From positions 910,774-974,773 of the forward strand of contig CAWBDZ010000011.1 of NCBI GenBank assembly GCA_963787665.1: a DNA stretch of 64,000 nucleotides, in the 5' to 3' direction. Position 1 is the stretch's first letter; each line of letters opens with the position of its first letter. This stretch comes from an uncultured Actinomycetota bacterium (GTDB taxonomy: Bacteria; Actinomycetota; Actinomycetes; Streptosporangiales; Streptosporangiaceae). This document shows positions 11,308 through 56,695 of this stretch, one piece after another. Under the pieces are notes generated by a model, which ran no database searches, had not been told where the DNA came from, and saw only the letters and a program-made list of their open reading frames with translations. The position numbers were made by a program, and so were the translations under genes.

Positions 11308-11317
11308 CCTCGGTTGC

Positions 11318-38059: not shown

Positions 38060-39322
38060 ATGGCCACCGATGTCCAGCCGCAGAATGCCCGGATCTGGCT
38101 GACCTTCCGCGAGTCGTCGTCAGCGACCAAGACCATCCTGGCCGGAGTTTTCGTGAACCGGCTGGGCGGCTTCCTGACCGTGTTCCTGGTGCTCTACATG
38201 GTGGCCAAGGGGTACTCCGTCGAGCAGGCGACGGCTGGCCTCGGCGTATACGGCGCTGGCGCAGTGGTCGGCCTGCTGATCGGCTCGATGCTCGCGGACC
38301 GGCTTGGCGCGCGGGTCGCAACCGTGATCAGCATGGGCGGCCTCGGAGTGCTGACAACCGGACTGCTGTACCTGCCCAGCTATTACCTGCTGCTGGCTGC
38401 CCTGCTCCTGAACGGCCTCGTCGGCCGCATCTACCGCCCGGCCTCGGCGACGCTGCTCTCCGACCTGACGCCGCCGGATCGCCAGGTGATGATCTTCGCC
38501 ATGTACAGGTTCGCGTTAAATGTCGGTGCCACCGCAGCGCCGCTGATCGGCTTCGCGCTGTACAGCCTCGGTCATCACGAGTTCACGCTGCTGTTCTGGG
38601 CCGACGGGATGACTTCGGCGGCTTATGCGGTGCTGGCTGCGGTCGCGCTGCCGCGCCACGAGCGCCGCGCGGCGGACGAGAAGAAGGGGCAGGTCAAGGC
38701 CAGCCGTTTCCTGATACCGAGGGACGCGCGCTACGGGCTGTACCTGATCGGAACGCTTCTCAGTGTTGCGGTCTACGTGCAGTACCAGTCGACGTTGCCG
38801 CTCGACGTGCGCGCCGCCGGAGTGGCGCTCTTCTGGTACACCCTCGTGGTCGCGATCAACGGAGGCATCGTGATCGCTCTCGAGCTGCTGGTGACCAAGA
38901 CGTCGCAAAAGTGGCCAATCCGGCTGACGATCGCGAGCTCGCTGCTCTTGATCGGGGCCGGCGTGGCTGTCTACGGCCTCCCGCTCGGCCCGGCGATTCT
39001 TATCATCGGCACCCTGATCTGGAGCCTCGGCGAGATCCTCGGCGGCCCGGCGACCTTCGCGTACGCGGCGATGGCGGGCACGGCGCAGCAGAAGAGCCGT
39101 TATATCGGCAGTTTCCAGTTCATGTTCGGCGCCGGGACGGCGCTTGGCCCGGTGGCCGGAGGTGTGCTGTTCACGCATCTGGGTCACCGAGTATGGCCAC
39201 TGATCGCGATCGCCGAAATGGTGGCACTGGCCCTCATGGCGACGGGTATCCGCAGTCCCCGGCCAGTGGCGTCGCCGGAAGCAGGCGGCGCGCTGACATC
39301 AACCGGGCCGACCCAGGCATAG
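38060..39322 (+). CDS. MFS transporter (candidate exporter of adjacent cluster)
   Basis: 420 aa, about 12 hydrophobic helices, MFS loop motif LADRLGAR. Confidence 0.8.
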   Translation: MATDVQPQNARIWLTFRESSSATKTILAGVFVNRLGGFLTVFLVLYMVAKGYSVEQATAGLGVYGAGAVVGLLIGSMLADRLGARVATVISMGGLGVLTTGLLYLPSYYLLLAALLLNGLVGRIYRPASATLLSDLTPPDRQVMIFAMYRFALNVGATAAPLIGFALYSLGHHEFTLLFWADGMTSAAYAVLAAVALPRHERRAADEKKGQVKASRFLIPRDARYGLYLIGTLLSVAVYVQYQSTLPLDVRAAGVALFWYTLVVAINGGIVIALELLVTKTSQKWPIRLTIASSLLLIGAGVAVYGLPLGPAILIIGTLIWSLGEILGGPATFAYAAMAGTAQQKSRYIGSFQFMFGAGTALGPVAGGVLFTHLGHRVWPLIAIAEMVALALMATGIRSPRPVASPEAGGALTSTGPTQA

Positions 39323-39338
39323 CTCAGCCAGCCGCTGG

Positions 39339-40395
39339 TCACCAGCCAGCTATTTCCAGAGCCCCGCGCTGGCTGGCGGCCAGTACCGTCTTGGCCGAAC
39401 TGCCAGAGCCGCCGGTGAAGGTCAGCAGCGACCTGCCCGCGCCTGGTACCGAACGCAGCGACAGGATCGGCGGGTCGCAGAAGCAATCGACAGCACTCGT
39501 CCGGGCTCGCACAGCCCCGAGGCGCAGCCGCGGGAAGCATTCGGCGGCCAGCTGGCCCGCCCGCACGTGCACGGCGGGCATAATGGCCGCGCAGCCAGCG
39601 GCCGCACCCCACTCCCTGACCGGCACGCCGAGGGTGATGCCACCGCCCGGCAGCGGCTTGCCGTAGAGCCCGGTTCGCCCGTCGGTGAAGGCAGGAGGCC
39701 GCCACGGGCCGGCGTCGTAGCTGCTGAACTGAATGGACCTGGTCCGGTAGGCCGGAGCCGGGTAGCCGATGCGGTGCAGCAGGTCGTGGTGTCCATGCGC
39801 CGGCGGCCAGTACCAGCACGTCGTGCTCGCCGTCGATATCTTCGGCCCGCCAGCGCACTCCGCCTTCAGCGCGGACGGTAGCCTCGGTCAGGCCGGCCAG
39901 CTTGACGCGAGTGCGCGGCCGGTCGACGAGGTCAGCGATGAGCGCGTCCCTGAGCCCACCGGGCGACACCGATCCGGCCTGCCGCTCGACAACTGCCGCG
40001 CCGTCGCCGCCGGCCCAGCACTGGCCGTCCGCCGTGCTGCCGAAGGCCTCGGCCGCCGACAGCACAGTTGCGGATCCCGGCAGGGCCCGCTCGATCTCGC
40101 CAACCTGATCCGTCAGGTCGGCGGCGTCGTCCCGCACATACGCGAAGCTGGCTTGCCGGAAGCCTGCCCAGCGCCGCAGCACCTGGCTGGCGAGCAGCTC
40201 GGCCATGCTCGCGATGGCCAGTTCCCGCTGCGCCGCGAGGGTCTCGTACGCCCGCACGGCACCACCAGAGGCGGAGGTTGCGTCCCTTGCGCGGTGCCGC
40301 CCGGTGACCAGATCGACGGTGATGCCAGCGAGCTGCGCCAGCCGCCACGCCAGGGCCGCGCCAGCCAGCCCGCCGCCGGCGACGCATACTCGCAT
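39339..40395 (-). pseudogene. FAD-dependent (DAO/glycine-oxidase-type) oxidoreductase with apparent frameshift near 39783-39808
   Basis: N-terminus MRVCVAGGGLAGAALAWRL (GxGxxG) ...HDVLVLAAGAWT. The neighbouring frame then continues HHDLLHRIGYPAPAYRTRSIQFSSYDAGPWRPPAFTDGRTGLYGKPLPGGGITLGVPVREWG...DCFCDPPILSLRSVPGAGRSLLTFTGGSGSSAKTVLAAS to the stop at 39339-39341. The remainder of the 403-aa track ORF is Arg-rich nonsense. Confidence 0.75.
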
Positions 40396-41852
40396 CAGGC
40401 GCCGGCCGGGTGGCCCGGGGGAGCGCCAGCAGACCCCGGTTCGGCCTCGTGGAAGCAGCAGCTGGCTGCCGCGCCACTGGTCATATTGAGTACGCCGGCG
40501 TCCAGGTCTGGCGTCCCGCGCAGCCGCATCCCGCCGTATCCGCTGGCAGCGAGGTAGGCGCCCCAGATCAGCAGCAATGGCTGCGGACCGTCGTCCGCGG
40601 GAAACAGCTCAGGAACCGGCCGGACACGCTGTTGCAAAACGAACGAGCCGGTCATCGCCGCGGCCAGCTGGCTGTCCCAGTCATCTGGGTCGGTGAGCCA
40701 GCCGGGCACCACCCCGATCCCGCCATGCAAGGCTGTGGGTTTGAGTACTAGTTCGGAACGGTTAGCGCAGGCGTATTCGGTCAGCTCGACTTGCTCGCTG
40801 TTGACGCTCACCGGTCCGGGACGCATCATTCGGGTCCAGGGCAGCAACCGGTCCAGGCTTGCCAGTTCGGCAGCGCTGCACAGATGACGGTTGGCCTCGT
40901 CCGATAGCAATGCCAGCGCCCCTTTGGATGCATAGAGCTGGGAGTCCATTGGCGTGAAGATCTGCACTTCGCCGCGTTCGGCAGCACGCAGTACTGGGTC
41001 GATGAGCGCGGGCCCGTCCGGGTCAAGCAGGTCCTCGATGAGGAAGATGCGGTAAATCACGTCGATCGGCCGCCGGCCCAGCCAGACCCGGCGATCGTGC
41101 ACTGCCAGTTCGCCCAGGTGGCACGGAACCAAGTCGATGCCGTAGCCGGCATACACCCGGGCGCTGGTGCGCAGGACGGCCTTCCAGGTGTCGATCGTGC
41201 CGGGCCAATCGACGGCGGCGATCAGCCTTCCGTCACCTGCGCTGCCGCCGGTTTCGGCGAAGATCGTCCCGGCGGTCTCCGCGAGAGTGTCTGTGTAGGT
41301 GAGGCCGTGCGCCGCAACGAACTCCGCGATCACGGGATGCGCGAGGCATGCCCGGTTGAGCATGACGTTGTCGCCGCCGCCAACCGAGCTGCCAATGTTG
41401 ACCTCCATCAGCTTGAAGCCGGTGTCGTCAAGGTAAAGGTCGCCGCGCGCCATCTTGGTCGGCGTTGCACTTTGGGTGCGCATGATGGCAGTGACCTGCA
41501 CGTCGGTCATTCCGACCGCCCTGGCGAAGGCGGCGACGTCGCCGCCGAACAGGCGCTCGGGCAGTGCCGTCAGCGCGGCGTGCAGGTTCTGCAAGTCCGC
41601 CGTTAGCCGCGTCTTCTCGGCGTAGCCGAGGAAGGACGGCCGGCTCAGGCAGCGGTCGAAGAAGGTGGTCGCGGCGAGGTCCGTTGTGCTGCGGGCTACC
41701 TCCAGCAGCTCGCCAGCCCGCATTCCTCGCCTCGCCACCTCCTTGAGATACAGCTCCACCAGCTCGTCATGGATCATGTAGTGCTGCCCTTCGCGGGAGT
41801 GTGCCTTGCGGCGCGGCAGGCCGGCAACGGCCCCGGCCGGCGTGCGGGTCAT
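40395..41852 (-). CDS. ATP-grasp-fold ligase-like protein (glutathionylspermidine-synthase / circularly permuted ATP-grasp-like), function unknown
   Basis: About 485 aa. ARGDLYLDDTGFKLMEVNIGSSVGG and SELVLKPTALHGGIGVVPG resemble pre-ATP-grasp/ATP-grasp segments. Start either ATG 41850-41852 (ATGA overlap with the upstream gene) or ATG at about 41777 (MIHDELVELYL). Its stop shares 1 nt with the start of the flavoprotein gene. Confidence 0.5.
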   Translation of the reverse strand: MTRTPAGAVAGLPRRKAHSREGQHYMIHDELVELYLKEVARRGMRAGELLEVARSTTDLAATTFFDRCLSRPSFLGYAEKTRLTADLQNLHAALTALPERLFGGDVAAFARAVGMTDVQVTAIMRTQSATPTKMARGDLYLDDTGFKLMEVNIGSSVGGGDNVMLNRACLAHPVIAEFVAAHGLTYTDTLAETAGTIFAETGGSAGDGRLIAAVDWPGTIDTWKAVLRTSARVYAGYGIDLVPCHLGELAVHDRRVWLGRRPIDVIYRIFLIEDLLDPDGPALIDPVLRAAERGEVQIFTPMDSQLYASKGALALLSDEANRHLCSAAELASLDRLLPWTRMMRPGPVSVNSEQVELTEYACANRSELVLKPTALHGGIGVVPGWLTDPDDWDSQLAAAMTGSFVLQQRVRPVPELFPADDGPQPLLLIWGAYLAASGYGGMRLRGTPDLDAGVLNMTSGAAASCCFHEAEPGSAGAPPGHPAGA

Positions 41853-43177
41853 GTCGCGGCAGCTGCTGCCGCGGTTGGCGCGGCGGCTCCGGGCCCGGAA
41901 TGCTGCCATGGCATGGCGGTCTTCGTGAGCGGCTGCCCAGCGAGCTTGACGTCGATCCGCTCGGCGAATTCCTCCAGCGTCCGCTTCACGGCGCTGAAAG
42001 ACGGGCCGATCACGATGAGAAAGCCGAGGATGTTGTTGCCATGCGGCGGCCGCAGGATGACGTCGCCAGGACTGGCGGTGATCTTCGCCATCAGGGTCAG
42101 TTCAGATTCGCTGACCTCAGGAGGCACCGAGACGAACTCCAATTCACCCTCGTCGCAGATCAGGCAGGTGCCCATCATGTGCACGCCCGTCGGCCGGTAG
42201 TGGCTGACCCTGGGCCGGACGCCGCGTGCCACATCCATGACGGCTCGGATGGGACAGTAGTCGGCAGTGGCGCGAGCGACCAGGTCAAGCCCGCCGCCAC
42301 CCGGCCGGATCGCGATCTCCAGCAGATGCGGCTCACCGTGGTGGTACCGGATCTCGGCATGCAGGACGCTTCGCCTGATGCCTTGCGCGTGCGCCGCGGC
42401 CTTGACGATCGCGTGAATCTTTGCCAGCTCACCGGCACTCAGCGAGGTGGGCGCCTGGTGCACGTCGTCGTCGAAAGTCTCGCCCTCGAGTGTGACGCGG
42501 TCTACGGCCGAGCCCAGATAGACCTCGTCGTCCCAGGCCAGCGCTTCGAACAGGTACTCCGAACCAGCCAGGAACGACTCGATCATCAGGCCGCCCGGCC
42601 CGATGTCGATGCCCTCGGCCTCGGCAAGCAGGGTGGGCATGTGCTGGATACCCTCGATCGCGTCCTGGTACCTGACAGCGAGCATGGCCTCGTCGTCCAC
42701 CCGGAAGACAAAACTGCTGGCTGCGCCGAGAGTCGGCTTCAGGACCACCGGGTAGCCGAACTCTCGCGCCGTCGCCGCCGCCTCGGCGAGGCTGGTGACA
42801 TGGCGGAATCGCGGATGGGCAGCGCCCGCCCGCTCGTGCGCCTGGCGCATGAGCAGCTTGTTGCGGCTTCGTTGGGCAGCTTCCAGCCCGACACCTGGCA
42901 ACCTCAGCGCGTCCGCAACCACCGCGACGGCGGCGACCGCGGCTTCGGCGAACGTGAAGACACCGTCGAAATGCTCTTCAGCGTGCCAAGCCCTGGCGGC
43001 CGCGACGATGTCGTCGATCCGCTGGGATCCGACGATCCTGTACCTCTCCGCCGGCCAGTAGTCCGCCTCGCCAAGGCCATTGAGCACGAACAGGTCGGCG
43101 CCAAAGTCCCTGACCTGTTCGTAGCGAGACAGATGCACGTGGCCGCGCTGGCGGGCCTCGATGGCAAGTAACTTCAT
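41849..43177 (-). CDS. ATP-grasp domain protein (L-amino-acid-ligase-like)
   Basis: RNKLLMRQAHERAG, FGYPVVLKPTLGAASSFVFRV, LMIESFLAGSEY, LLEIAIRPGGGG. ATG 43175-43177 is preceded by GGAGGGA. Confidence 0.8.
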   Translation of the reverse strand: MKLLAIEARQRGHVHLSRYEQVRDFGADLFVLNGLGEADYWPAERYRIVGSQRIDDIVAAARAWHAEEHFDGVFTFAEAAVAAVAVVADALRLPGVGLEAAQRSRNKLLMRQAHERAGAAHPRFRHVTSLAEAAATAREFGYPVVLKPTLGAASSFVFRVDDEAMLAVRYQDAIEGIQHMPTLLAEAEGIDIGPGGLMIESFLAGSEYLFEALAWDDEVYLGSAVDRVTLEGETFDDDVHQAPTSLSAGELAKIHAIVKAAAHAQGIRRSVLHAEIRYHHGEPHLLEIAIRPGGGGLDLVARATADYCPIRAVMDVARGVRPRVSHYRPTGVHMMGTCLICDEGELEFVSVPPEVSESELTLMAKITASPGDVILRPPHGNNILGFLIVIGPSFSAVKRTLEEFAERIDVKLAGQPLTKTAMPWQHSGPGAAAPTAAAAAAT

Positions 43178-43270
43178 GACTCCCTCCGCTCCGGACTGAG
43201 GCTCGGGCTCCGCTGGCATGAGCCACGCACTTGCGCGTTTGCGGCAAGCGGCGACGGCACGGCCGCCAGG

Positions 43271-43660
43271 TCAGGACGTGGCGGTGCCGTCAGCGATCGC
43301 CGACTTGTCATGACGGGTGCCGAACTGACTGGCCAGGTCGGCATCCCACCACACGCTGAAGAACTGGAAGTCGTCTGTGCCGGCGTTGATGAGCTGATGA
43401 TTGCGACCCGGCGGGAAGTGCACGAGGTCACCAGGCAGGAACGGGGCGCGCTCGCCTTCTGATTCCAGCTCGCCCTCGCCCGACACGGCAAGGAAGATCT
43501 CGTACTCGTGGTGCGCGTGCGGGTCGGTCGCGCCGCCGGGCTCGATGACGCAGAACGCTCCCTCGAACGGCGCATTGAGCGCGGCCCACGGCATCAGCCG
43601 CTGGACCTGCACGCCGTATTCGGACGGCATATTCGCGCGGTCAAGCCGGTGAATTTCCAT
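43271..43660 (-). CDS. stand-alone cupin-domain protein
   Basis: 129 aa. Both cupin motifs are intact: GGATDPHAHHEYEIFLAVSG (G-x5-HxH-x3-E-x6-G) and GDLVHFPPGRNHQLIN (G-x5-PxG-x2-H-x3-N). Confidence 0.85.
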   Translation of the reverse strand: MEIHRLDRANMPSEYGVQVQRLMPWAALNAPFEGAFCVIEPGGATDPHAHHEYEIFLAVSGEGELESEGERAPFLPGDLVHFPPGRNHQLINAGTDDFQFFSVWWDADLASQFGTRHDKSAIADGTATS

Positions 43661-43675
43661 GACATGCTCCGATGG

Positions 43676-45073
43676 CTAGGCGGTGGCGGCCGTCGCGGCC
43701 GCCGGGGCACTGGTTAAGTTCGGGCTGGCCGACTGCGGCATGGCTATCGCCGGGTCGGCCGAGGCGTGGCCGTCGCTGGCGGCGTTGCCGTTGGCGCGGT
43801 CGAGCGCGGTTTCGGCTGCCCGACGTGCGAGGATGTCATCGACTATCTCGCCCGCCCGGACGGCGAGCACGCTTATCAGCGAGTCGGCGATGCCATGCGT
43901 ATCCTCATTGACTCCCTGCAGATAGCAGCCCGCGCGCACCGATGGCGGTGTGATCATCCGGTATGCGCGGCTGACTTCGATCTCCTCGACACCGCACGCA
44001 CTGGCCGCACAGAGAGCGAGTGGCGGCATCCGTGATTCGAAGCCAGTGCCCAGCATGACCAGGTCGCACTGGTGTTCCCGGTCGGTGCCAGTCATCTGGT
44101 CACGGAGGCTGAGTACGACTTCGCCGTGCCGCATGACGGCGTCGGTTACGTCGGCCATGGTGATCATGGACAAGCGTTGCTGGCCGGTAAGCTTCTCCAG
44201 GTACATCTGCCGGAACAACGTGTCGAGCATCTCCGGGGTAACGCCCGCATAGTTGGTCTTGCGCATGGCGTGCAGTACCTGCTTCCGGACGTCAGCAGGT
44301 GCCGCGAAGAATTTATCCGTATAAGACGGGAAATAAAGCTCGTTAGTGAACTTGCTGGTCTGGTAGTAATCCAGGCCTATGGTTCGCATGACCATCGCGC
44401 ACTGCGACTTTGGCATTCGCTGGTGCGTCTCCCAGAGCATCTCAGCGGCACTCTCCGCGGCGCCGACCACGACCACGCGCAACGCCGCTTCTGGGTCGAT
44501 GTCGGCCACCCGGGCCGAGTACTCCGTGCTGTGGATGACGCGCTCAGCCGGCAGCCGGCGGAACGTTTCCGGCACGTGCGCTTCGCGGCCGGCCCCGACC
44601 ACCAACGTCTTGGCACCGATCGTCGACCCGTCAGCCATGGTGACCAGCCAGCCAGTAATCGTGTCGGCGCCAGAATTGACCGCCTCAATCCGCGCGCACT
44701 TGCGGCCGTACTGGATGCTCACCTTCTCCAGCGACTGGGCAACCCAGCTCAGGTATGCCGATATCTCTAACCGGAACGGCAGGAAGCTGGCCATGTTCAC
44801 GAAATCGTGCAGGCGGCCTTCAGAGTGCAGGTAGTTCACGAACGAGAACCTGCTCAGCGGGTTGCGCATCGTCACGAGGTCCTTGATGAAGGAGACCTGA
44901 CTCTGCGTCCAGGGCAGTAGCATGCCGCGTTGCCAGGCGACGCCATCATGCTGCTCGATGATCAGGGTGTGCTTCGCGAGATCGGCAGGAGCCATTTCCT
45001 CGATTGCGACGGCAAATGCCAGATTAGAAGGCCCGGCACCGATCGCTAGGATCTCGACTTGCTGATGATTCAC
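43676..45073 (-). CDS. L-lysine N6- / L-ornithine N5-monooxygenase family flavoprotein (IucD/PvdA/SidA type)
   Basis: 465 aa. EILAIGAGPSNLAFAVAI (FAD), VVVVGAAESAAEM (NADPH), DLVMLGTGF. Lies 15 nt upstream of the cupin gene. Confidence 0.85.
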   Translation of the reverse strand: MNHQQVEILAIGAGPSNLAFAVAIEEMAPADLAKHTLIIEQHDGVAWQRGMLLPWTQSQVSFIKDLVTMRNPLSRFSFVNYLHSEGRLHDFVNMASFLPFRLEISAYLSWVAQSLEKVSIQYGRKCARIEAVNSGADTITGWLVTMADGSTIGAKTLVVGAGREAHVPETFRRLPAERVIHSTEYSARVADIDPEAALRVVVVGAAESAAEMLWETHQRMPKSQCAMVMRTIGLDYYQTSKFTNELYFPSYTDKFFAAPADVRKQVLHAMRKTNYAGVTPEMLDTLFRQMYLEKLTGQQRLSMITMADVTDAVMRHGEVVLSLRDQMTGTDREHQCDLVMLGTGFESRMPPLALCAASACGVEEIEVSRAYRMITPPSVRAGCYLQGVNEDTHGIADSLISVLAVRAGEIVDDILARRAAETALDRANGNAASDGHASADPAIAMPQSASPNLTSAPAAATAATA

Positions 45074-45200
45074 AGCAGTAACTGCCTCTCGCGTGATGGA
45101 TTCCAGTTGCTGGGTGAGTAACTGGCGGACGGGTTCCGGGCAAGTGGCAGCCGCCCGCCTGGGCGGCGCGCCACGGCTGGGTTCGGCGGCCCGGGCAGGT

Positions 45201-46514
45201 TCATGACGACCCGCCGAGGCCGGCCACTGGTTGGTCGGCCGCCCGGATGGTCAGGGCAGCGCTCGCCGCGTCGAGCGCGTGCAGGCAATCGGCGGTTGTC
45301 TGGGCGACGGCCGTTGCCATCGCGATCCGCCCGGACATCGTGCCTTTAGGGGGCGGTGACTTCACATCGCCTGGCTTGGCGAGCACGATCGTCAGGTCGG
45401 CGGCGGGCGGCAGGCCGGCGGTGCCGAACCCGATCTCGCCGATCGTGGTGTCGTCGCTGGCCACGTAGAAGAAGCGCACGGCGCCCACCAGCTGGCGGTC
45501 GGCCTTCAGTTCTGGCCGCTGACCGCATGCCACCGCGGCCGCGGCCAGTCCGGGATCGATGCCGGTTGCGCGCATGCCGAGGTACGGGATCAGGTCACCG
45601 CCCAGCCGGGCGTTCACCTCGATGAGCATCGGCCCGTCGGGCGTGAGCCTAAGCTCGGTATGAGTCATGCCGTCGGTAAAGCCCACCGCCGCATGTGCAT
45701 CTCGCAGCACCCGCAGCAGGTCAGCGTCGGCGAGCAGCGGATCACCGGCATCGACGATGTGGCCAACTTCCTCGAAGTAAGGCGGATAGCCGATCTGTTT
45801 GCGGGCCAGGAACATCGGCAGCACCTCGCCGTCGTAGACCGCGGCGTCCACGCTGACCTCCGGGCCGGTCACGTATCGCTCGATCAGGACGCCCGCGTCA
45901 TAGCGCCAGGACCCCGGTACAGCGTTGTCCCTGACGAACGGGAACCTTGCGGCAAGTTCCTCCGGCCCGTCCGCACGCACGACGCCGAGGCTGCCGCCCA
46001 TCGCCCTGGGCTTGAGCACTACCGGGTAGCCGATCTGATCAGCGGCTGCGAGTGCCGAATCTAGCTCGGCTACCAGGACTGACGTGGGCTGGGGTGCGCC
46101 GGCCGCAGACAGCGCACGCCGGGTCAGGTGCTTATCACGGCACCGCATTACCATGTCGGGGTCGCCGCCGGGCAGACCGAGCGCGGCAGCAACCTTTGCG
46201 CTTTGCAGAATGCGTGCCTCGTCCCAGCTCAGCACGCCGCTGACGGCCTGCGCGGCGGCGAGTCGCAGCGCTGCCGCGCACATCTCATCGGCGCCGATGG
46301 TGTCGGCCATGCCGTCCAGCACGGTCCAGCCATCGACGTAGCCGAGTTCCCAGCTCGGCTCCGCGCCGAGGAACAGGTGCACGCGGTACTGCGAACTGAT
46401 GGATCGCAGCAGGTACTCACGGTAGTTCCGGCCGCCAGTAGAGATCAGTAGCAGTAGCGGGCGGTTGTCGCTCGCTGCGGTGCGCAGACCCGCCGCCTGA
46501 CTCGCCTCGGTCAT
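45201..46514 (-). CDS. ATP-grasp domain protein (L-amino-acid-ligase-like)
   Basis: In-frame ATG 46512-46514 (MTEASQAAG...) overlaps (ATGA) the upstream stop. CRDKHLTRRALSAAG, IGYPVVLKPRAMGGSLGVVRA, VLIERYVTGPEVSVD, MLIEVNARLGGD. Confidence 0.8.
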   Translation of the reverse strand: MTEASQAAGLRTAASDNRPLLLLISTGGRNYREYLLRSISSQYRVHLFLGAEPSWELGYVDGWTVLDGMADTIGADEMCAAALRLAAAQAVSGVLSWDEARILQSAKVAAALGLPGGDPDMVMRCRDKHLTRRALSAAGAPQPTSVLVAELDSALAAADQIGYPVVLKPRAMGGSLGVVRADGPEELAARFPFVRDNAVPGSWRYDAGVLIERYVTGPEVSVDAAVYDGEVLPMFLARKQIGYPPYFEEVGHIVDAGDPLLADADLLRVLRDAHAAVGFTDGMTHTELRLTPDGPMLIEVNARLGGDLIPYLGMRATGIDPGLAAAAVACGQRPELKADRQLVGAVRFFYVASDDTTIGEIGFGTAGLPPAADLTIVLAKPGDVKSPPPKGTMSGRIAMATAVAQTTADCLHALDAASAALTIRAADQPVAGLGGSS

Positions 46515-46855
46515 TGCGCGATCTCCTCGATCCGCGACACGCCAGTGTCCCCATCCAGCCGCTGCCAGTGCTCGACCAGCACGATCCGGCCATCCGGCAG
46601 CATCTCTGGCGTACTCACGCAGCCGCCGGCAATCGTCGTACCGTTGGCCGTCACCATGCAGTAGGCGGCGTCGATGACGCCATCGGGCCTGCAGGTACCG
46701 ACCAGCCGGCCAGCCCGGACCGCCGAGCCGGAGAAGTCCGCCCACACCAGGTCGCCTGCCTGGTGGTACTGACCTACCGATGTCCAGGTCCCGTCCGGGC
46801 CGGGCTGGTCGCCCGCTGGCCGGAACCAGCGTCCGCCATAGCTGATCGGTGACAT
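46511..46855 (-). CDS. small conserved beta-barrel (lipocalin-like) protein; from memory, this family is often annotated as 'N-acetylglutamate synthase'
   Basis: MSPISYGGRWFRPAGDQ...VGQYHQAGDLVWADFSGSAVRAGRLVGTCRPDGVIDAAYCMVTANGTTIAGGCVSTPEMLPDGRIVLVEHWQRLDGD. Pattern recalled from about 110-aa bacterial proteins. Start chosen at ATG 46855 because upstream codons have atypical low GC3. Confidence 0.45.
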   Translation of the reverse strand: MSPISYGGRWFRPAGDQPGPDGTWTSVGQYHQAGDLVWADFSGSAVRAGRLVGTCRPDGVIDAAYCMVTANGTTIAGGCVSTPEMLPDGRIVLVEHWQRLDGDTGVSRIEEIAQ

Positions 46856-46974
46856 GGCTACATCGCCGATTGAACCTGTCATGGCCTGCTCTGGTGCGCT
46901 GGCGTCGGCCTGCAGATCATCGTTGACCTTTCCTTCGTCCGCGTTAGTACCTGGCAACTCACCGAAAACGTCCG

Positions 46975-48345
46975 TCAGAGGCCCAACACCACCGGATCCG
47001 GTTTCCGGCCGGCCAGCGCCGCCAGCGCTGCCGAACTCGTTCCGGCCCCGGCTGCCAGGGCACCAAGTAAGCAACGGACGGCGAGCGCCGAATCGAATCC
47101 GGCCAGCTGGAGCGCGCGCTCGGCTCGTTCGAGCTCGGCGGGCGCTAGCTCTGGCGGTCGGCCCGGTCCGGCCGGCAGCTCGCCGCGAAGCAATGGTCCG
47201 ACGTACTCGCAGAAGGCCAGGTAGGACTCCCGGGTGAAGTCGCTCTCGTACCGGTCCGGACGGTCGAAGGACAAGTAGAGCCGGACGAGCTCGGGATCCT
47301 CGGTGGCCAGGAATTCATTTGCCCACAGCGCATGATTACGGCTGGTGGAGAACTTCTGGCCGTCCAGCAGGTACAGCTCGTTGACAGTTGCCCCGCGCAG
47401 CAGCGGCCTGCTGACTCCGGCGGCGGCAAGAATCGCCGGGTACAAGACCGTGAAGTAGAACGCGTTGTCGATGCCGTTGAAATGCCATACGCCGTCGACA
47501 TCATCGAAGGCCCCGATGCGTGCTGCGAGCGTGTCGGCGTCGGGCCGCAGTGCCTTGGCCGGACCGTATATGTAGCTCAGCCCCAGCTCGGTCGGGAAAT
47601 CCAGGCGCAGGCCGGCCAGGTCCTCGTCGCATTCGATGCCCCAGTTGGTGGGGTAGGCGACCGGATAATCCGGCAGCGGGTTGTCGAGGTAATGCGCCAG
47701 GAAGGCCCGGACCCTAGGCGGCAGGTCGGCCAGTTGCCACTCGGCCACAAGGTTCGCGCGGTAATCCTCGAGCGGCAGCACCGGCACGCGGAGCGTCATC
47801 GGCCGCGGGCTGCCGCCACACCATGCGCAGCTGGGATCGATCAGCAACTCGGATGAGGTGAAAGCGCCGCATGGCTCACATGAAAGGCCGTTGGCGCCGC
47901 TGCCGCAGATAGGACACTTGCCGACGACGTAGGCATGGTGCAAGGTGCGGCCGCAGTCGGCGCACTCGTGCATCGTGACCTCTCGGATCGACAGTGCGCC
48001 GCGGGCCATGAGCTCGGCCAGCATGCCGAGCGCTGCCCGTTCGAACTTCGGATCCTGCGGGTCGAGGAAGACGTCGTAGCCAATGCCCGCGAGCTCGAAC
48101 GCCGTTGCTATCTGGCCGCGGAACTTCGCGACCATCTCGACGGGGTCGACGCCAAGGAATTCCGCCTTGAGGTGCACGAAATTCGGATGGACATCAATGC
48201 CTGCCAATGTGAGCACGCGCTCCCCGCGGGATCTGGCGGCTCGGGCCGCGATGTCGGCCGCCAGATACGGACCTGACAAATGACCGATATGCAGCGGACC
48301 GTTGACTGTAGGCTGCGGGATGACGATTACAGTCACGCCTGTCAC
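46975..48345 (-). CDS. methionyl-tRNA-synthetase-like class I ligase paralog (catalytic domain only)
   Basis: 456 aa. HIGH motif (NGPLHIGHLSG), MetRS-type Zn knuckles (CADCG...CPICG...CEPCG...CAWCG), degenerate KMSKS (KFSTSRN). Too short to carry a full anticodon-binding/C-terminal domain. GTG start preceded by GGGAAGGGAGA. Confidence 0.8.
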   Translation of the reverse strand: MTGVTVIVIPQPTVNGPLHIGHLSGPYLAADIAARAARSRGERVLTLAGIDVHPNFVHLKAEFLGVDPVEMVAKFRGQIATAFELAGIGYDVFLDPQDPKFERAALGMLAELMARGALSIREVTMHECADCGRTLHHAYVVGKCPICGSGANGLSCEPCGAFTSSELLIDPSCAWCGGSPRPMTLRVPVLPLEDYRANLVAEWQLADLPPRVRAFLAHYLDNPLPDYPVAYPTNWGIECDEDLAGLRLDFPTELGLSYIYGPAKALRPDADTLAARIGAFDDVDGVWHFNGIDNAFYFTVLYPAILAAAGVSRPLLRGATVNELYLLDGQKFSTSRNHALWANEFLATEDPELVRLYLSFDRPDRYESDFTRESYLAFCEYVGPLLRGELPAGPGRPPELAPAELERAERALQLAGFDSALAVRCLLGALAAGAGTSSAALAALAGRKPDPVVLGL

Positions 48346-49054
48346 GGTGTCTCCCTTCCCGCTGCCAGGATGGCCACTGCATCCGTCCCGGCGTTGGGCG
48401 CATTAGTCGAGCCTCCATTGGCTCGTGACTTATCCCGGGGAACTAGCAAAATAAGCGCGCTTGCGCCGAACACCAAACGCGCGGGAACGGCCACGGTGGT
48501 CAGACCGTTGAACGTGGGTCACATTCGCTCGGTCAGCATGACAGCCTGTCGGGACGCCTAGCAGCACTCACGTGAATGGCAGAGCCACCACTCCCCTCAG
48601 TCGCACTTGGCGAGCGCGTCGTATTACAAATCGGTGAAGATCGAGTTCGTTTGGGAGTCTACGACGCCATTCGAGTCCTGCCAAGCCCCTGATTAGCAGC
48701 CAATCCTGTCCAGTCGCAGTGGCATCAACGGATGCATTGGTCCGATTAATTTTCTTCAGCGTCTCGTTGCCTCTTGCGGCAACGTCTGTCACAAGAGTTT
48801 GCAGACCATCTTGGCATTGCGGCGAGCAGCGACGGCGGTTAGCCTTCTCGCAGAATGGCTGCAAGGCCGGGCGTCTTGCCGTGGCCACAGCCGGTAGCGA
48901 CGCTGCTGCCCGGAAGGGGTGGTGCAGGCAACCGCCGGAGAACGGGTAGTCAAGAACGTTCGGAATGGGCAGTGACGGAATGCCGCACGGCCTGCCCTGC
49001 ACTATATCCAAGTGCTTTAAGCGCCAGCTCGCCGGAGAAGTCAAGGAGGCCTGG
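48346..49054. promoter_or_regulatory. about 700-bp comparatively AT-rich divergent intergenic region between the two cluster operons
   Basis: No ORF with genome-typical GC3. Visibly lower GC (e.g. ccgattaattttcttcagcg). Flanked by outward-facing starts at 48345 (-) and 49055 (+). Confidence 0.6.
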
Positions 49055-49771
49055 GTGAGTCACGCAGATTCGGCCCGAGACGCTGCTGCCATTCCATTGT
49101 GGAATGACGCCTACGATCAGGCTCACCTGCAGGACCATGAGAATCTGTGGGGGGACCCGCCGGTTCCGTTCGCATTGACGGCGGCGCAGTTGTTCGCCAC
49201 CGGTGCCGCTGCTGTGATTATCGACTTGCCATGCGGTGACGGCCGGAACCTGCCGCCCCTAGCCGACGGCGCACCTATTGTGCTAGCGGGCGACACCTCG
49301 GTCAAGGCGATGGTCATTGCCGAAGGCGTGACGAACCGGGCTGGCATCAGGCACAAGGTGGTCTTCACCAGGACTGACGTCTTCGCCACTGGACTGCTCG
49401 ATGATTCCGTGGATGGCGTCTTCTGCTGGGACCTGCTTGGTCATCTGACCAACGCCGCTGATGCGCTTCGCGAGCTGTACAGGATCACTCGGCCAGGCGG
49501 CTGCATTGTGGCCAACATGTGGACCATGAACGACTGCCAGACTTCCGACCCGAATATCCGGGAAATCGCGCCGAAGGAATATATCGATCATTTCGACTTT
49601 TACTGCAGGTTCTACGATCGAGACGACATTACGGGGCTACTGGCGTCGGTCGGGATGACCGCCGAGTCGGTGGCGGTGTCCGCCTGGCGGGAGCCAGGTC
49701 ACGCGGACTACCGGACGTACGAGCACGATCACGAGAGCCTGGTCTTCGTCATCAGGAAGCCCAGGATCTGA
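49055..49771 (+). CDS. class I SAM-dependent methyltransferase
   Basis: VIIDLPCGDGRN (motif I), DGVFCWDLLGHL, RPGGCIV. GTG 49055 is preceded by AAGGAGG at optimal spacing (the track start 48965 is unlikely). Confidence 0.8.
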   Translation: MSHADSARDAAAIPLWNDAYDQAHLQDHENLWGDPPVPFALTAAQLFATGAAAVIIDLPCGDGRNLPPLADGAPIVLAGDTSVKAMVIAEGVTNRAGIRHKVVFTRTDVFATGLLDDSVDGVFCWDLLGHLTNAADALRELYRITRPGGCIVANMWTMNDCQTSDPNIREIAPKEYIDHFDFYCRFYDRDDITGLLASVGMTAESVAVSAWREPGHADYRTYEHDHESLVFVIRKPRI

Positions 49772-49822
49772 AGGCCGGCGCGAAAAGGGCTGAACACTAG
49801 GCATGAGAGAAGTCTGACGACG

Positions 49823-50824
49823 GTGGGCGCGCGTGATCTCCGGCCGGCCGATGGTGACGAAGGTTATCGGACACGGCAGTTTGGCGTCGGGATCGGCTAT
49901 GCCCCGGCCCACCACGGCGAACTGCTGCAGGGCATCTTCGATGATGGTGCGGGGCACCTGCGCCGGGCGCTTGTCACCTTGCCGCAGCGGGGGCGGGGTA
50001 GCCGCGCGGTGTTCAGGCCGAGCGGGAATCACTGGGGCGTTGTCGGAACGCCGGAACTTGTGAAGGTGAGGCGCGCGGCGGTACTCGCGCTGCGCGAGTT
50101 CGCCACCCACCCGGCCCCGGTCAAGGGCGGCCAGATCGAGATCATCAGGGACTTCCCGCTGGGCGTGGGGATGGGCTCGTCGACCAGTGACGTCACCGCG
50201 ACGATCCGCGCGGTTGCTGATTTCCACGGTGTCATGCTGTCGCGCGAAGAAGTTGGCCGGCTGGCTGTGCTGGCTGAGGTTGCCTCGGACTCGATCATGA
50301 TCGATGACCGTGTCGTGCTTTTCGCCCACCGCGACGGGCAGGTACTGGAGACGTTCGGTCACCGGCTGCCGTCCATGATCGTCGTTGGTTGCGATACCCA
50401 GCCAGGATCGGTCGTCGACACTCTCGGCCTGCAGCAGGCTGACTACAGCAGCCGGGAAGTGGGAGCTTTTCAGGTCTTGCGTGGTGCGATCCGGCGAGCA
50501 ATCGCGACCGAGGATGTGGCGCTGCTGGGCCGGGTGACGACGGCAAGCGCCCGTATCAACCAGCGATTCCTGGCCAAGCCCGCGCTGGAGACCCTGCTCG
50601 AGCTGAACCTTCGGCTCGGCGGCTGCGGCATCCAGGTCGCGCATAGCGGCACTGTAGCCGGGCTGATCTTCGACTCGAGGCTGCCCGGAATCGAGGCCAC
50701 GGTCGAGCGCTGCGTCACGGGTATCAACGAGATTGGCCTCGCGATGACCGCGGTGATCAGTCCGCAGCCTGCAGCGGGCGGCAGCGCGCCGCCAGTGCCG
50801 GTCACTGCGATGGTGTCGGCGTGA
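49823..50824 (+). CDS. GHMP-family kinase (PduX/L-threonine-kinase-like)
   Basis: 333 aa. N-terminal APAHHGELLQG and GHMP motif II PLGVGMGSSTSDVTA. Confidence 0.7.
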   Translation: MGARDLRPADGDEGYRTRQFGVGIGYAPAHHGELLQGIFDDGAGHLRRALVTLPQRGRGSRAVFRPSGNHWGVVGTPELVKVRRAAVLALREFATHPAPVKGGQIEIIRDFPLGVGMGSSTSDVTATIRAVADFHGVMLSREEVGRLAVLAEVASDSIMIDDRVVLFAHRDGQVLETFGHRLPSMIVVGCDTQPGSVVDTLGLQQADYSSREVGAFQVLRGAIRRAIATEDVALLGRVTTASARINQRFLAKPALETLLELNLRLGGCGIQVAHSGTVAGLIFDSRLPGIEATVERCVTGINEIGLAMTAVISPQPAAGGSAPPVPVTAMVSA

Positions 50825-51924
50825 TGAGCATCAGAACTAGCTACGCCGAAGCCACTGACGCCTATCAGCTGCCGCGTCTGATCAGGTTGACCGCCAATCT
50901 CTATGCCGCCAGCTTCACCTTGATGAAGATGATCCCGGCCCGTTACATCCTGCGCCAGGCCGCAGCTCTCGGGACGCTGGAACCAGGCGCGGTCATCACG
51001 GAGACAACCTCGGGCACCTTCGGGCTCGCACTGGCGATGCAAGCCGTGCATATGGGCCACCCCCTGATCCTGGTCAGCGATCCCGTCATCGACGAGCGGC
51101 TTTACCGCAGGCTGACTGACCTGGGTGCAGTCGTGGACCGGGTGCCCGCCTCGGCGAGTGCGATGGCCGGCGGGTTCCAGGCCGCGCGCCTGCAGCGGCT
51201 TGCCGAGATACGCGCGGAGCACGAGCTCACTTTCTGCCCCGAGCAGTACTCGAATCCGGATAACCCGCGCTCGTACGCCACTGTCGCCGAGCTGTTCCTG
51301 GAATGCCTGGGTCAGGTCGACTGCATGGTGGGCCCGGTCGGATCTGGCGGCTCCATGTGCGGGACGGTGACCGCACTGCGATCCATCATTCCGGAGTGCC
51401 GCGCCATCGGGGTCGATACTCACGGGAGTGTGCTATTCGGACACGCCGACGGCCCGCGTGAACTGCGCGGAATGGGCATGAGCCTGATGCCAGCCAACTT
51501 GGATCACCGGGTCTTCGACAGCGTGCACTGGTGCGCGCCCGGGCCGGCTTATCTGGCCACCCGGCAGTTGCACCGCCAGCACGCGCTGTTCATGGGACCG
51601 TCCAGCGGCGCCGCCTACCTGGTGGCTCTGTGGTGGGCGAACGCCAACCCGGGTGCCGTCACCGTGGTCATGCTGCCCGACGAGGGATACCGCTACCAGG
51701 ACACCGTCTATGACGACGAATGGCTGCGGGCGCACGGACACACTGATCAGCCGCTGCCGGCCGACCCGGTGACCGTCGCCGATCCGGCCCGGCCGGAAGG
51801 CAACTGGACCGAGTACAACTGGGCACGCCGCTCATACGCCCAGGTGCTCGCAGCGCAGGCCGAGCGGTTGGGCGCTCAGATTGCCGACAGCGAACCGGTC
51901 GCGGGCCAGGTGAGCGCGCGTTGA
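50821..51924 (+). CDS. PLP-dependent fold-type II enzyme (cysteine synthase / SbnA-like beta-replacement enzyme)
   Basis: 367 aa. FTLMKMIPA (candidate PLP Lys), ETTSGTFGLALA, GPVGSGGSMCG, GPSSGAAY. Overlaps both neighbours by 4 nt. Confidence 0.75.
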   Translation: MMSIRTSYAEATDAYQLPRLIRLTANLYAASFTLMKMIPARYILRQAAALGTLEPGAVITETTSGTFGLALAMQAVHMGHPLILVSDPVIDERLYRRLTDLGAVVDRVPASASAMAGGFQAARLQRLAEIRAEHELTFCPEQYSNPDNPRSYATVAELFLECLGQVDCMVGPVGSGGSMCGTVTALRSIIPECRAIGVDTHGSVLFGHADGPRELRGMGMSLMPANLDHRVFDSVHWCAPGPAYLATRQLHRQHALFMGPSSGAAYLVALWWANANPGAVTVVMLPDEGYRYQDTVYDDEWLRAHGHTDQPLPADPVTVADPARPEGNWTEYNWARRSYAQVLAAQAERLGAQIADSEPVAGQVSAR

Positions 51925-53420
51925 CGGGGACCGGACGGCTGCTGGGTGAACTCGGGCCGTGGACCCAGCGCGTCGTCTATGGCGAGCTAACTCAGGCCGA
52001 CATCGATGCTGAACTGCCGCTGATGGTGCAGGTCGATCAGGCGCATCTGGTCATGCTCGCGGAGCAGGAGCTTATCCCGGCGGCAGCCGCTGCGGATTTG
52101 CTGCGCTGCATTGACGCGCTAGCGGCGCAGCGGTTCGCACCGCTGCTTCAACGGCCAGCGCCGCGCGGCCTCTATCTCATGTACGAGGGCTACCTCATCG
52201 AGCAACTCGGCGCCGACATCGGCGGCGTGCTGCACTCCGGCCGGTCCCGGAACGATCTGAAGGCAACGATCACGAGCCTGCGACTTCGGGCCTGGCTGCT
52301 GGGTTTCACTGCGCAGGCAGTCCGGCTCGAGGCGGTGCTGCTGTCCAGGGCCCGGGCCTACCGGGCGATCGTGATGCCTGCCTACACCCACTTCCAGGCA
52401 GCGATGCCAGTCACCTATGGCTACTACCTGCTCGGGATAGCTATCGCGCTCGGCCGTGAGATCGACGCGCTGCAATCTGCCGCGGCGGGTCTGCAGGCCA
52501 GTCCGCTCGGCGCGGCGGCTGTGGCCGGCACCGATCTGCCGATCGACGCCGGTCGCACGGCACGGCTGCTCGGATTCTCCGGCCCGCATGGCCACGCGCT
52601 GGATGCCGTGGCGAGCAGGGATGTACCGCTGCGGCTACTCGCCGCTGCCACCGGGGCGGGAATCGTGCTGAGCCGCCTGGCGACCGACCTCCAGCTATGG
52701 AGCACATTTGAATTCGGCCTGATCAGCTTTCCGGACCGGCTAGTCGGCGGCAGTTCTGCGATGCCGCAGAAGCGCAACGCTTTCCTGCTCGAGCATGTCA
52801 AGGCGAAGGTGGGTCACGCTCTTGGTGCCTGGGCCGGCGCTGCGGCGATGATGGCAGCCGCGCCGTTCACGAACTCGATCGAGGTCGGCACCGAAGCGAT
52901 GGCCGGCATCTGGCCCGGCCTGCTAGCCGCAGAGCAGAGCGTGCTGCTTGGTCAGGTGCTCGTGAGCGGCGCCCGGCCCGCTGCGGCTCGCATGATGCAG
53001 CGTGCCCAGACAGGGTTCACCACCGCGACGGCGGTGGCCAACCGCCTGGTCCGCTGCGGCGTCCCCTTCCGCACTGCGCACCACATGGTCGGTGACGCGG
53101 TGCGTCAGGCGGTGGAAGCCGGTTCGACCGAGCTGGCTGACTTCGGCCCGCCAGGCTGGCTGGACCGGATCGAGCTAGCCGATCTTGATTTGCCATCGGT
53201 TGTCCGCGCGCACGTGCACGGCGGCGGTCCGGGCGCGTTCGCTGACTTGTTCAGTAACGCTGTGCAGGCGTGGACGCATCACCATGACTGGCTGAACGCG
53301 TGGCGAGCGAACGACGTCGCGGCGGGAACGATGCTTGCCGCGGCCGTCCAGCAGTTGTCCGGCAGCCTTCTTCGATCGGCTGAGCCTGAGGTCGCCGCTG
53401 ACCGGGAGCGCGCGCGGTGA
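51921..53420 (+). CDS. argininosuccinate-lyase-like (fumarase/aspartase superfamily) lyase
   Basis: 499 aa. HSGRSRNDLKAT, MPAYTHFQAAMPVT, GGSSAMPQKRN signature, and GVPFRTAHHMVGDAV, which closely parallels the E. coli ArgH segment GVPFREAHHIVGEAV. Confidence 0.8.
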   Translation: MTGTGRLLGELGPWTQRVVYGELTQADIDAELPLMVQVDQAHLVMLAEQELIPAAAAADLLRCIDALAAQRFAPLLQRPAPRGLYLMYEGYLIEQLGADIGGVLHSGRSRNDLKATITSLRLRAWLLGFTAQAVRLEAVLLSRARAYRAIVMPAYTHFQAAMPVTYGYYLLGIAIALGREIDALQSAAAGLQASPLGAAAVAGTDLPIDAGRTARLLGFSGPHGHALDAVASRDVPLRLLAAATGAGIVLSRLATDLQLWSTFEFGLISFPDRLVGGSSAMPQKRNAFLLEHVKAKVGHALGAWAGAAAMMAAAPFTNSIEVGTEAMAGIWPGLLAAEQSVLLGQVLVSGARPAAARMMQRAQTGFTTATAVANRLVRCGVPFRTAHHMVGDAVRQAVEAGSTELADFGPPGWLDRIELADLDLPSVVRAHVHGGGPGAFADLFSNAVQAWTHHHDWLNAWRANDVAAGTMLAAAVQQLSGSLLRSAEPEVAADRERAR

Positions 53421-56577: not shown

Positions 56578-56586
56578 TGTCCGGGA

Positions 56587-56648
56587 CTGGCCACTGCCCT
56601 GCTGGCCACTGTCCCTGCTGGCCGCTGTCCCTGCTGGCAGCAGTCCTG
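56587..56648. repeat. 4 x 15-16-bp imperfect tandem repeat CTGGCCACTG(T)CCCTG
   Basis: Units at 56587, 56602, 56618 and 56634, in the gap between the flavoprotein stop (56577) and the HipA-like start (56696). Confidence 0.85.
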
Positions 56649-56695
56649 GCCGGCTGGCACCCGGCGTAAGCTGCGGCCTTGTGCTTCCCCAAGTG

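Follow-up and report, generated by a model that had tools for sequence, protein, structure and literature searches.

A stand-alone cupin and a methionyl-tRNA synthetase (MetRS)-like protein, encoded apart in the window (the whole stretch of 64,000 nucleotides that was analysed, from an uncultured actinobacterium of the Streptosporangiaceae), very probably constitute a natural two-protein hydrazine synthetase within a biosynthetic gene cluster (Table 1). This reading is supported because the best match of the MetRS-like protein is the C-terminal domain of PyrN (PyrN-C), and because the cupin matches other stand-alone cupins, including RHS1. The observations comprise domain identities, conserved catalytic motifs, a fold matching that of PyrN-C and a synteny that is kept across loci. 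The first-pass annotation had proposed a split synthetase whose two halves are encoded apart, beside an N-hydroxylase, and this assignment stands.

Table 1. Genes of the cluster, in order of their positions in the window
Feature	Position	Strand	Remarks
MFS transporter	38060..39322	plus	PF07690 2e-34; convergent with operon
DAO-family FAD oxidoreductase	39351..40395	minus	PF01266 2e-12, N-terminal half only; frame broken
Glutathione-synthetase / glutathionylspermidine-synthetase-like (permuted ATP-grasp) ligase	40395..41777	minus	460 aa; by Foldseek
ATP-grasp L-amino-acid ligase 2	41849..43219	minus	PF13535 3e-14, LAL_C2 6e-10
Stand-alone N-N-forming-type cupin	43271..43660	minus	129 aa; Pfam Cupin_2 E 2e-16
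Flavin-dependent lysine/ornithine N-monooxygenase	43676..45073	minus	465 aa; PF13434 3e-85
ATP-grasp ligase 1	45201..46514	minus	437 aa from ATG at 46514; PF13535 5e-16
Small conserved ORF	46511..46882	minus	123 aa; stop overlaps next gene's start
MetRS-like O-aminoacyl-hydroxylamine synthetase (stand-alone PyrN-C homologue, short-tail clade)	46975..48345	minus	456 aa; PF09334 1e-50
SAM-dependent methyltransferase	48965..49771	plus	PF08241 1e-12; first gene of divergent operon
GHMP-family kinase	49823..50824	plus	PF00288 2e-12
SbnA-like PLP enzyme (beta-replacement type)	50821..51924	plus	TIGR03945 1e-58, below its cut-off
Argininosuccinate-lyase-like Lyase_1 enzyme	51921..53420	plus	PF00206 1e-34; PDB 2e9f 5e-60
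ATP-grasp L-amino-acid ligase 3	53417..54676	plus	LAL_C2 8e-20, ATP-grasp_4 4e-17
Class B flavin N-oxygenase, L-aspartate N-hydroxylase relative (FzmM/CreE type)	54673..56577	plus	PDB 8cp2 2e-65, full length
HipA-like kinase	56507..57517	plus	PF20613 5e-18

The two halves of the probable synthetase

The translation of the cupin gene contains both metal-binding motifs in intact form, G42-x5-H48-x-H50-x3-E54-x6-G61 and G77-x5-P83-x-G85-x2-H88-x3-N92, as had been claimed for this 129-residue ORF. H48-x-H50-x3-E54 and H88 correspond to His50, His52, Glu56 and His90 of PyrN, the set of residues that has been mutated in PyrN and RHS1, and the protein thus combines the H(D)-x-H-x3-E and distal histidine signature of the zinc cupins with homology to PyrN-N and RHS1. 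Among its sequence matches in the PDB are 4rd7 (5e-42), 4mv2 (3e-26) and 5uqp, which is RHS1 (6e-11); the N-terminal cupin domains of fused hydrazine synthetases match with E values down to 1.5e-32, and all 120 nearest homologues are of stand-alone length (107-138 residues). An unrelated cupin had been named as a possible pitfall, yet the protein matches RHS1, and likewise the cupin domains of the fused synthetases, far better than it does sugar isomerases. The placement of the gene was also described correctly: it lies 15 nt downstream of the monooxygenase, whose ORF ends at 43676, and 3.3 kb (46975 - 43660) from the MetRS-like gene. The latter is the operon head, with only a divergent intergenic region upstream of it on the minus strand.

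The MetRS-like protein has HIGH at residue 19, KFSTS at residue 331 and four CxxC motifs (residues 128, 144, 156 and 173), which bears out the ORF limits, the length and the zinc knuckles given earlier; the public annotation of an identical protein (P0001) has the same start and the same length. The description of KFSTS as a degenerate KMSKS has to be revised, since KFSTS is a family-wide signature, present in almost every one of the 150 top relatives. HIGH together with KFSTS, and a sequence nearer to PyrN-C than to MetRS (best PDB match 9l8v/9vq4 at 3e-60, best MetRS at 1e-41), characterise the class I core of the protein. Its AF2 model (pLDDT 87.5) has as top Foldseek match 9l8v, the PyrN C-terminal domain in Foldseek's naming (E 2.5e-29, TM 0.78-0.80).

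Downstream of the lysine of KFSTS the protein extends for 125 residues, compared with 200-230 in most relatives, and the AF2 model of this tail consists only of short helices (372-386, 398-411, 419-431 and 439-445), with about 70 residues of the helical bundle remaining beyond the KFSTS domain. The gap of 460 nt behind the gene is occupied by a separate conserved small gene and not by a frameshifted tail. The short tail marks a small clade, and the view that the C-terminus is too short for a full anticodon-binding region proved right.

These data also bear on another reading, in which the protein would be a genuine methionyl-tRNA synthetase paralogue, kept for instance as a back-up or for resistance, and the cupin would have nothing to do with it. 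MetRS is the nearest family by Pfam and NCBIfam, and public annotations call homologues methionyl-tRNA synthetase. However, no NCBIfam score exceeds 184 bits, whereas the MetRS cut-offs are 336-633, PyrN-C beats every MetRS in sequence and fold, the motif is not KMSKS, the anticodon-binding helical bundle is incomplete, and in related loci the gene is always clustered with a cupin and an N-hydroxylase. The check for a true MetRS, which the first-pass annotation had suggested, hence speaks for the hydrazine synthetase, and we give the paralogue almost no credence.

A conserved and modular gene cluster

The same gene set co-occurs in the related loci that were fetched (L001-L006, L009 and L010), which speaks against a chance arrangement. 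Metagenome-assembled genomes (MAGs) with the set have been placed in Streptosporangiaceae, Jatrophihabitans, Pseudonocardiales and Sporichthyaceae; its module on the MetRS-like side also occurs in a Mycobacteriales MAG. The conserved cluster spans roughly 19 kb in genomes of uncultured soil actinobacteria and includes four ATP-grasp-type ligases, the SbnA-like enzyme and the relative of aspartate N-hydroxylases. The clade of the MetRS-like protein is populous: 648 proteins match at E 1e-10 or better, and the best 120 of them are at least 67% identical, every source-named one being from a MAG. In a survey of representatives, 61 of 143 were stand-alone.

The N-monooxygenase resembles MbtG lysine N6-monooxygenase (2e-71), PvdA (5e-68) and KtzI (4e-64) in the PDB, and its linkage to the cupin is kept in related loci. 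Together with the cupin and ligase 2, which accompanies the monooxygenase and this cupin lineage in every fetched locus that has them, it forms a block retained in L001-L006 and L010. In L001-L004, L009 and L010, ligase 1 (NCBIfam PRK02186, N-terminal half, 2e-49) adjoins the MetRS-like gene. Orthologues of the small ORF between these two genes are 71-89% identical in L001-L004 and 56-66% in L009 and L010; its homologues in the latter two loci carry a precomputed Pfam assignment to Avidin_like (PF26421), and Pfam scans of the ORF itself gave no match. The permuted ATP-grasp ligase had no Pfam or NCBIfam match either, PF14403 being found in two of its homologues, and was recognised by its AF2 model (pLDDT 92.3) with Foldseek matches to 8fbz (4e-17), 3n6x (2e-14) and 2io7. 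The MFS transporter, conserved in L001-L005 and L010, is probably the exporter.

In the divergent operon, homology of the methyltransferase begins near residue 26-31 (69-89% identity in L001-L005), the GHMP-family kinase is conserved in L001-L005 and L010, and the SbnA-like enzyme is conserved at 74-89% in related loci. The ArgH-like lyase scores 270 bits with TIGR00838 against a cut-off of 279.5. The FzmM-like N-oxygenase retains Arg13, Asn62, Arg266, Arg409, Arg412 and Arg416, and its substrate chamber is altered (Asn413 to Asp, Arg577 to Ser, Arg276 not kept). Compared with the aspartate-nitrosuccinate pathway (CreE/FzmM with CreD/FzmL), chamber residues are partly changed and the neighbouring lyase is ArgH-like. 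The HipA-like kinase, conserved in L001-L004 only and weakly in L001 (52% over 132 residues), probably marks the right edge of the cluster; hom-thrC-thrB lie beyond it.

Across related loci, the module with the ligase and the one with the hydroxylase and cupin recombine independently of each other. Locus L009 combines a member of the same MetRS-like clade with a cupin and a monooxygenase that share only 24-25% identity with their counterparts in the window, so that the hydroxylamine partner is not fixed within the clade.

One gene of the operon has an interrupted reading frame. A 1-nt insertion near 39780-39790 breaks the frame of the DAO-type gene, and the intact L001 orthologue aligns with it in frame -2 (40395-39715) and frame -3 (39815-39351). 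The gene is conserved in L001-L004, L009 and L010, with a different break in L004; in L005 no copy lies within 10 kb. The two breaks would fit a decaying, non-functional cluster in this genome. We consider decay unlikely, since the remaining genes are all unbroken and share 75-93% identity with their orthologues; moreover, the window looks metagenome-assembled, as is every named relative, and a single-base assembly error would be at least as probable as a real mutation.

A putative pathway and its amino-acid partner

By analogy with the characterised PyrN, RHS1 and FuzD-G, from which the chemistry as far as the release of the hydrazino acid is taken, the presumed hydrazine synthetase and its neighbours may work as follows. 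The flavin monooxygenase would generate N6-hydroxylysine or, less likely, N5-hydroxyornithine. The MetRS-like protein would adenylate an amino acid independently of tRNA and transfer it to the N-OH oxygen, giving an unstable O-aminoacyl-hydroxylamine, and the free zinc cupin would take up this ester and rearrange it to form the N-N bond. An FAD oxidase, for which the DAO-type gene is a candidate, would then cut the lysine scaffold and so set free an alpha-hydrazino acid; this step is uncertain because the gene is frameshifted in the window and absent near L005. The four ATP-grasp-type ligases would incorporate the hydrazino acid in a product, a small peptide or hydrazide, to be exported by the MFS pump. 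The cluster product is probably a hydrazine or hydrazide peptide.

It is conceivable that the pair forms no hydrazine and that the O- or N-aminoacyl-hydroxylamine is used as such, for instance in a hydroxamate or valanimycin-like route, with a different role for the cupin. In the absence of the cupin the PyrN ester rearranges to an N-acyl hydroxamate shunt product, the distance between cupin and ligase, 3.3 kb here, reaches 9 kb in L010, and the cupin that accompanies the ligase clade in L009 is very different. But the cupin in the window is a member of the N-N-forming lineage with its catalytic residues intact, every fetched locus of the clade has a cupin, and cupins of this family act in trans and accept non-native partners. 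We therefore regard a route without hydrazine as very unlikely.

As to the substrates of the presumed hydrazine synthetase, PyrN Thr141, Asn143, Glu286, Asp420 and Asn421, which contact the adenylate, its alpha-groups and N6-OH-Lys, correspond to T13, N15, E157, D293 and N294 of the MetRS-like protein and are invariant across 67 clade members. Two usually conserved PyrN positions are changed (Gln182 to Pro54 and Glu284 to Ser155), which weighs against the assignment. The 11-residue amino-acid pocket, PQPTDPPLSNF, compared by sequence alignment and not by superposed structures, is invariant in the clade and equals none of 21 published pockets. Since the nearest published types are those for alanine, serine and glycine, the partner is likely to have a small side chain; we infer both partner and product. 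Possibly the cluster itself makes the partner, as a beta-substituted alanine that the neighbouring GHMP kinase and SbnA-like enzyme may supply. Taken together, the pocket might indicate an amino acid unrecorded for hydrazine synthetases, the 19-kb cluster a new N-N peptide scaffold, and the FzmM-like N-oxygenase with the ArgH-like lyase a second nitrogen-oxidation branch, a combination that we put forward only tentatively. If true, the second branch would recall triacsin biosynthesis, in which hydrazine chemistry is likewise paired with nitrite chemistry.

Known systems and significance

The first-pass annotation presented the split as unusual and as a new opening for mechanistic dissection, which does not hold, because such pairs have already been assayed. 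The RHS1 pair of Rhodococcus jostii RHA1, a natural stand-alone cupin and MetRS-like protein, was described and assayed in 2021, its cupin acting in trans on the O-aminoacyl-hydroxylamine (PMC8664883). As in the window, the two proteins are separate and clustered with a lysine N6-hydroxylase. However, the RHS1 cupin is distant from that in the window and has Asp for the first His, and the system uses glutamate with a pocket of PyrN type, unlike the one found here. Split pairs made up 21 of 28 systems tested in 2025 (bioRxiv 10.1101/2025.08.22.671884), and the separate proteins FuzE and FuzG followed with an in vitro reconstitution (PMC13149037, 2026). Afn8/9 is counted among the split forms as well, with the RHS1 pair and FuzE/G.

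In the fuscazine cluster of Microbispora fusca (FuzC-H), too, the monooxygenase adjoins the cupin and the MetRS-like enzyme is encoded apart; the cluster also shares with the window an FAD oxidoreductase and ATP-grasp ligases, the latter making the product, a hydrazide tripeptide (PMC13149037). This likeness is one of parts lists; gene order and accessory genes differ, and the window has neither the Fe/2OG dioxygenase nor the tRNA deacylase. FuzG uses arginine or 3-hydroxyarginine (PMC13149037), and a related Microbispora locus (L008) encodes a MetRS-like protein of 547 residues, only 31% identical to that in the window. The didomain enzymes PyrN, Spb40 and Tri28 have the same two catalytic modules and motifs, but fused via a helical linker, with a tail after KFSTS/KFSTG about 90 residues longer and with other pockets (SFPTVQALRNR for glutamate, the TPDQWMNH type for glycine). 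The frameshifted DAO-family gene is a candidate counterpart of the lysine-scaffold-cleaving FAD oxidase of HAA-type cassettes (Spb38-40, Tri26-28, FuzD-G), such as Spb39 or FuzF. Of the same short length is Micromonospora profunda WP_306272881, a stand-alone actinomycete enzyme (459 residues), which with the separate cupin WP_245241356 gave a product in E. coli, the amino acid being alanine (bioRxiv 10.1101/2025.08.22.671884, Suppl. Tables 4-5). Its pocket reads PPPTDQNMRNY instead of PQPTDPPLSNF; judging by length, we infer that it belongs to the same short-tail clade.

The split layout is already common and reconstituted in vitro, and novelty is limited to the amino-acid partner and the product; as trans-acting pairs have been purified and assayed, this enzyme adds nothing to the mechanism. 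Its value is that of a genome-mining lead, with an abundant clade, a pocket unlike published ones and a conserved cluster rich in ATP-grasp ligases, and the independent recombination of its ligase and hydroxylase-cupin modules is relevant to mix-and-match biocatalysis.

Identity of the ligase and the cupin

The first-pass annotation had read a cupin and a MetRS-like ligase encoded in one operon as a hydrazine synthetase split over two proteins, and our comparisons support that reading. The features on which it was built (the ORFs, the 15-nt spacing, the HIGH, CxxC and KFSTS motifs, and the cupin motifs) are all correctly placed. The ligase carries HIGH at residue 19, KFSTS at 331 and CxxC at 128, 144, 156 and 173; the four CxxC motifs agree with PyrN-C, the C-terminal MetRS-like half of the didomain hydrazine synthetase PyrN, for which two nested zinc clusters have been described. 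KFSTS had been taken for a degenerate KMSKS, but nearly all of the family has this motif.

A sequence search of the PDB puts 9L8V/9VQ4 closest to the ligase (E 3e-60), above all MetRS entries; Foldseek names 9L8V as PyrN-C. With the AlphaFold2 model of the ligase as query (pLDDT 87.5, pTM 0.89), Foldseek again places PyrN-C first (E 2.5e-29, TM 0.78-0.80). No NCBIfam MetRS model scores the ligase above 184 bits, whereas their cut-offs lie at 336-633. PyrN residues Thr141, Asn143, Glu286, Asp420 and Asn421, which bind the adenylate or N6-hydroxylysine, are kept in the ligase and invariant in its clade of close relatives, while two usually conserved positions are changed (Gln182 to Pro54, Glu284 to Ser155).

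The cupin has both classical motifs, H48-x-H50-x3-E54 and H88. Its nearest solved relatives are all stand-alone cupins: 4RD7 (5e-42), Plu4264 (3e-26) and RHS1/5UQP (6e-11), the last being the Rhodococcus jostii RHA1 enzyme shown to make the N-N bond (PMC8664883). All 120 nearest cupin relatives listed are likewise stand-alone. Among fused hydrazine synthetases the cupin matches the N-terminal domains, with E-values down to 1.5e-32. Sugar-isomerase cupins score about 1e-6 or worse. The MetRS scores and the cupin matches therefore leave the split-synthetase reading standing against the two sequence-based objections to it, namely that the ligase is a true MetRS or the cupin an unrelated one.

Split pairs and the short ligase tail

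The split had been regarded as unusual, but the literature and the family itself show that it is not. RHS1 was assayed in trans and gene pairs were tested (PMC8664883), albofungin Afn8/Afn9 is split, and the fuscazine cupin and MetRS-like proteins FuzE and FuzG of Microbispora fusca were purified separately and then reconstituted (PMC13149037). By our own count from the supplement of a 2025 study (bioRxiv 10.1101/2025.08.22.671884), 21 of the 28 systems tested have separate cupin and MetRS proteins. Our exhaustive family search matched 2531 proteins, and 143 full-length sequences were compared (138 best representatives and five from the window's own clade). The cupin is fused in 82 of the 143 and not in the other 61, and a neighbour-joining tree requires 22 or more switches between these conditions.

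The shortness of the ligase is real. Counted from the K of KFSTS, 125 residues remain up to its C-terminus, against 200-230 in most relatives. We considered a frameshift artefact, with the missing tail in the 460-nt gap behind the gene (46511-46975), and rejected it: the gap is occupied by a distinct, conserved gene for a 123-aa protein. Among the best 120 of 648 relatives nearly all are 440-480 aa long, and in the clade alignment invariant positions occur within the last 60 residues. The short-tail state forms a monophyletic group made up of the window's clade and the family representatives P0121, P0123, P0126 and P0122, the last a fused member of 565 aa. Alignment and model indicate that one helix following the KFSTS domain was lost, along with the distal bundle helices. 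A tail this short is compatible with activity, since a Micromonospora MetRS-like enzyme of 459 aa, whose cupin is a protein of its own, is active with alanine (bioRxiv 10.1101/2025.08.22.671884); from its length we infer that it belongs to the same clade.

The gene cluster and its relatives

The ligase and cupin genes belong to a single operon, all read in one direction between 48345 and about 39351, opposite a divergent operon. Promoter and terminator scans were uninformative. The intergenic region between the operons is of lower GC. Within it lies a 158-aa ORF, weakly conserved and lacking any family match; the region probably serves regulation and is not a gene. Beside hom-thrC-thrB, the cluster has a second GHMP kinase and a PALP-fold enzyme of its own.

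Features of the cluster and its surroundings
Feature	Position	Strand	Remarks
MetRS-like protein, 456 aa	46975-48345	-	operon gene 1; Pfam domain
Small ORF, 123 aa	46511-46882	-	operon gene 2
ATP-grasp ligase	45201-46514	-	operon gene 3; Pfam domain
Lysine/ornithine N-monooxygenase	43676-45073	-	operon gene 4; Pfam domain
Cupin, 129 aa	43271-43660	-	operon gene 5, 15 nt downstream of monooxygenase; Pfam domain
Second ATP-grasp ligase	41849-43219	-	operon gene 6; Pfam domain
460-aa protein	40395-41777	-	operon gene 7; glutathione-synthetase-like fold predicted
DAO-family FAD oxidoreductase	39351-40395	-	operon gene 8; Pfam domain; reading frame split
Intergenic region, ~700 nt	48346-49050		between the divergent operons
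158-aa ORF	48568-49044	-	intergenic
Methyltransferase, GHMP kinase, SbnA-like PLP enzyme, ArgH-like lyase			divergent operon
Third ATP-grasp ligase			divergent operon
634-aa flavoprotein	54673-56577	+	divergent operon
HipA-like kinase			divergent operon
Whole cluster	~38060-57517		on the left: MFS transporter, then lon
hom-thrC-thrB	58088-61553	+	right flank, immediately adjoining; housekeeping-looking

Neither the 460-aa nor the 123-aa protein has a Pfam or NCBIfam match of its own. For the conserved 460-aa protein, structure prediction gives with high confidence a glutathione/glutathionylspermidine synthetase fold (permuted ATP-grasp), which with the three ATP-grasp ligases makes four ATP-grasp-type ligases in all. 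Homologues of the 123-aa ORF carry Avidin_like (PF26421) in precomputed Pfam; its translation is coupled to that of the ATP-grasp gene, and the ORF accompanies the MetRS-like gene in related loci L001-L004, L009 and L010. Compared with intact orthologues in L001-L003, the DAO-family gene has one extra nucleotide near 39780-39790 that breaks its reading frame, through either an assembly error or a true lesion that makes it a pseudogene. In L004 the same gene is broken at a different place.

Over its full length the flavoprotein is homologous to L-aspartate N-hydroxylase (PDB 8CP2, E 2e-65), with a changed substrate chamber (Asn413 to Asp, Arg577 to Ser, Arg276 not kept). The ArgH-like lyase lies upstream of it, with only the third ATP-grasp gene between. 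The two may form a second nitrogen-oxidation branch in the cluster. That lyase and FzmM-like oxygenase act as a nitrite-generating pair was considered and set aside, since the residues for aspartate binding are retained only in part and the lyase resembles ArgH. The nitrosuccinate lyase CreD is probably nearer to the PurB/PcaB type.

The cluster is kept in uncultured Actinomycetota. L001-L004 are 75-93% identical, the Pseudonocardiales locus L006 is collinear, L005 (Jatrophihabitans) has the core genes with the monooxygenase-cupin-ligase block inverted, and in L010 (Sporichthyaceae) 9 kb separate cupin and ligase. L010 also encodes an AlaX-like tRNA_SAD protein (3268-4017) between an ATP-grasp ligase and the flavoprotein. 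Such tRNA deacylases serve to flag pathways for non-canonical amino acids; the window has none.

In L009, from a Mycobacteriales MAG (9636-13779), a cupin gene and a MetRS-like gene overlap at the start of the latter. The MetRS-like product is 70% identical to the window's ligase, whereas the cupin and a monooxygenase close by share only 24-25% identity with their counterparts. The partner module appears to have been swapped; ligase and hydroxylase-cupin modules hence recombine independently of each other. A locus reached through the cupin, L008 of Microbispora sp. ATCC PTA-5024 (8657-14982), holds a monooxygenase, a cupin, a 547-aa MetRS-like protein and TauD. Its cupin and monooxygenase are 55% and 54% identical to the window's, its long-tailed MetRS-like protein only 31%, and it proved to be a different cluster.

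The amino-acid partner

We read the ligase pocket at 11 published positions, with codes from PMC12376268 and the 2025 bioRxiv supplement, as P10 Q11 P12 T13 D51 P54 P251 L254 S257 N294 F298. Across 67 clade members ten positions do not vary and Q11 hardly does, and no identical pocket occurs among the 21 published ones or any other family representative. The pocket has neither the Arg pair of the glutamate and aspartate types nor the glycine-type Trp/Met pair; the nearest types are alanine/serine and alanine/glycine, e.g. PPPTDQPIQNY. Our tentative best guess from these residues is a partner whose side chain is small and neutral, or else a beta-substituted alanine made by the cluster.

Together, our data confirm the observation of separate cupin and ligase genes and support its functional reading, but not its novelty. 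The value of the locus lies in a substrate pocket unlike the published codes, and in a cluster that is widespread in uncultured Actinomycetota.
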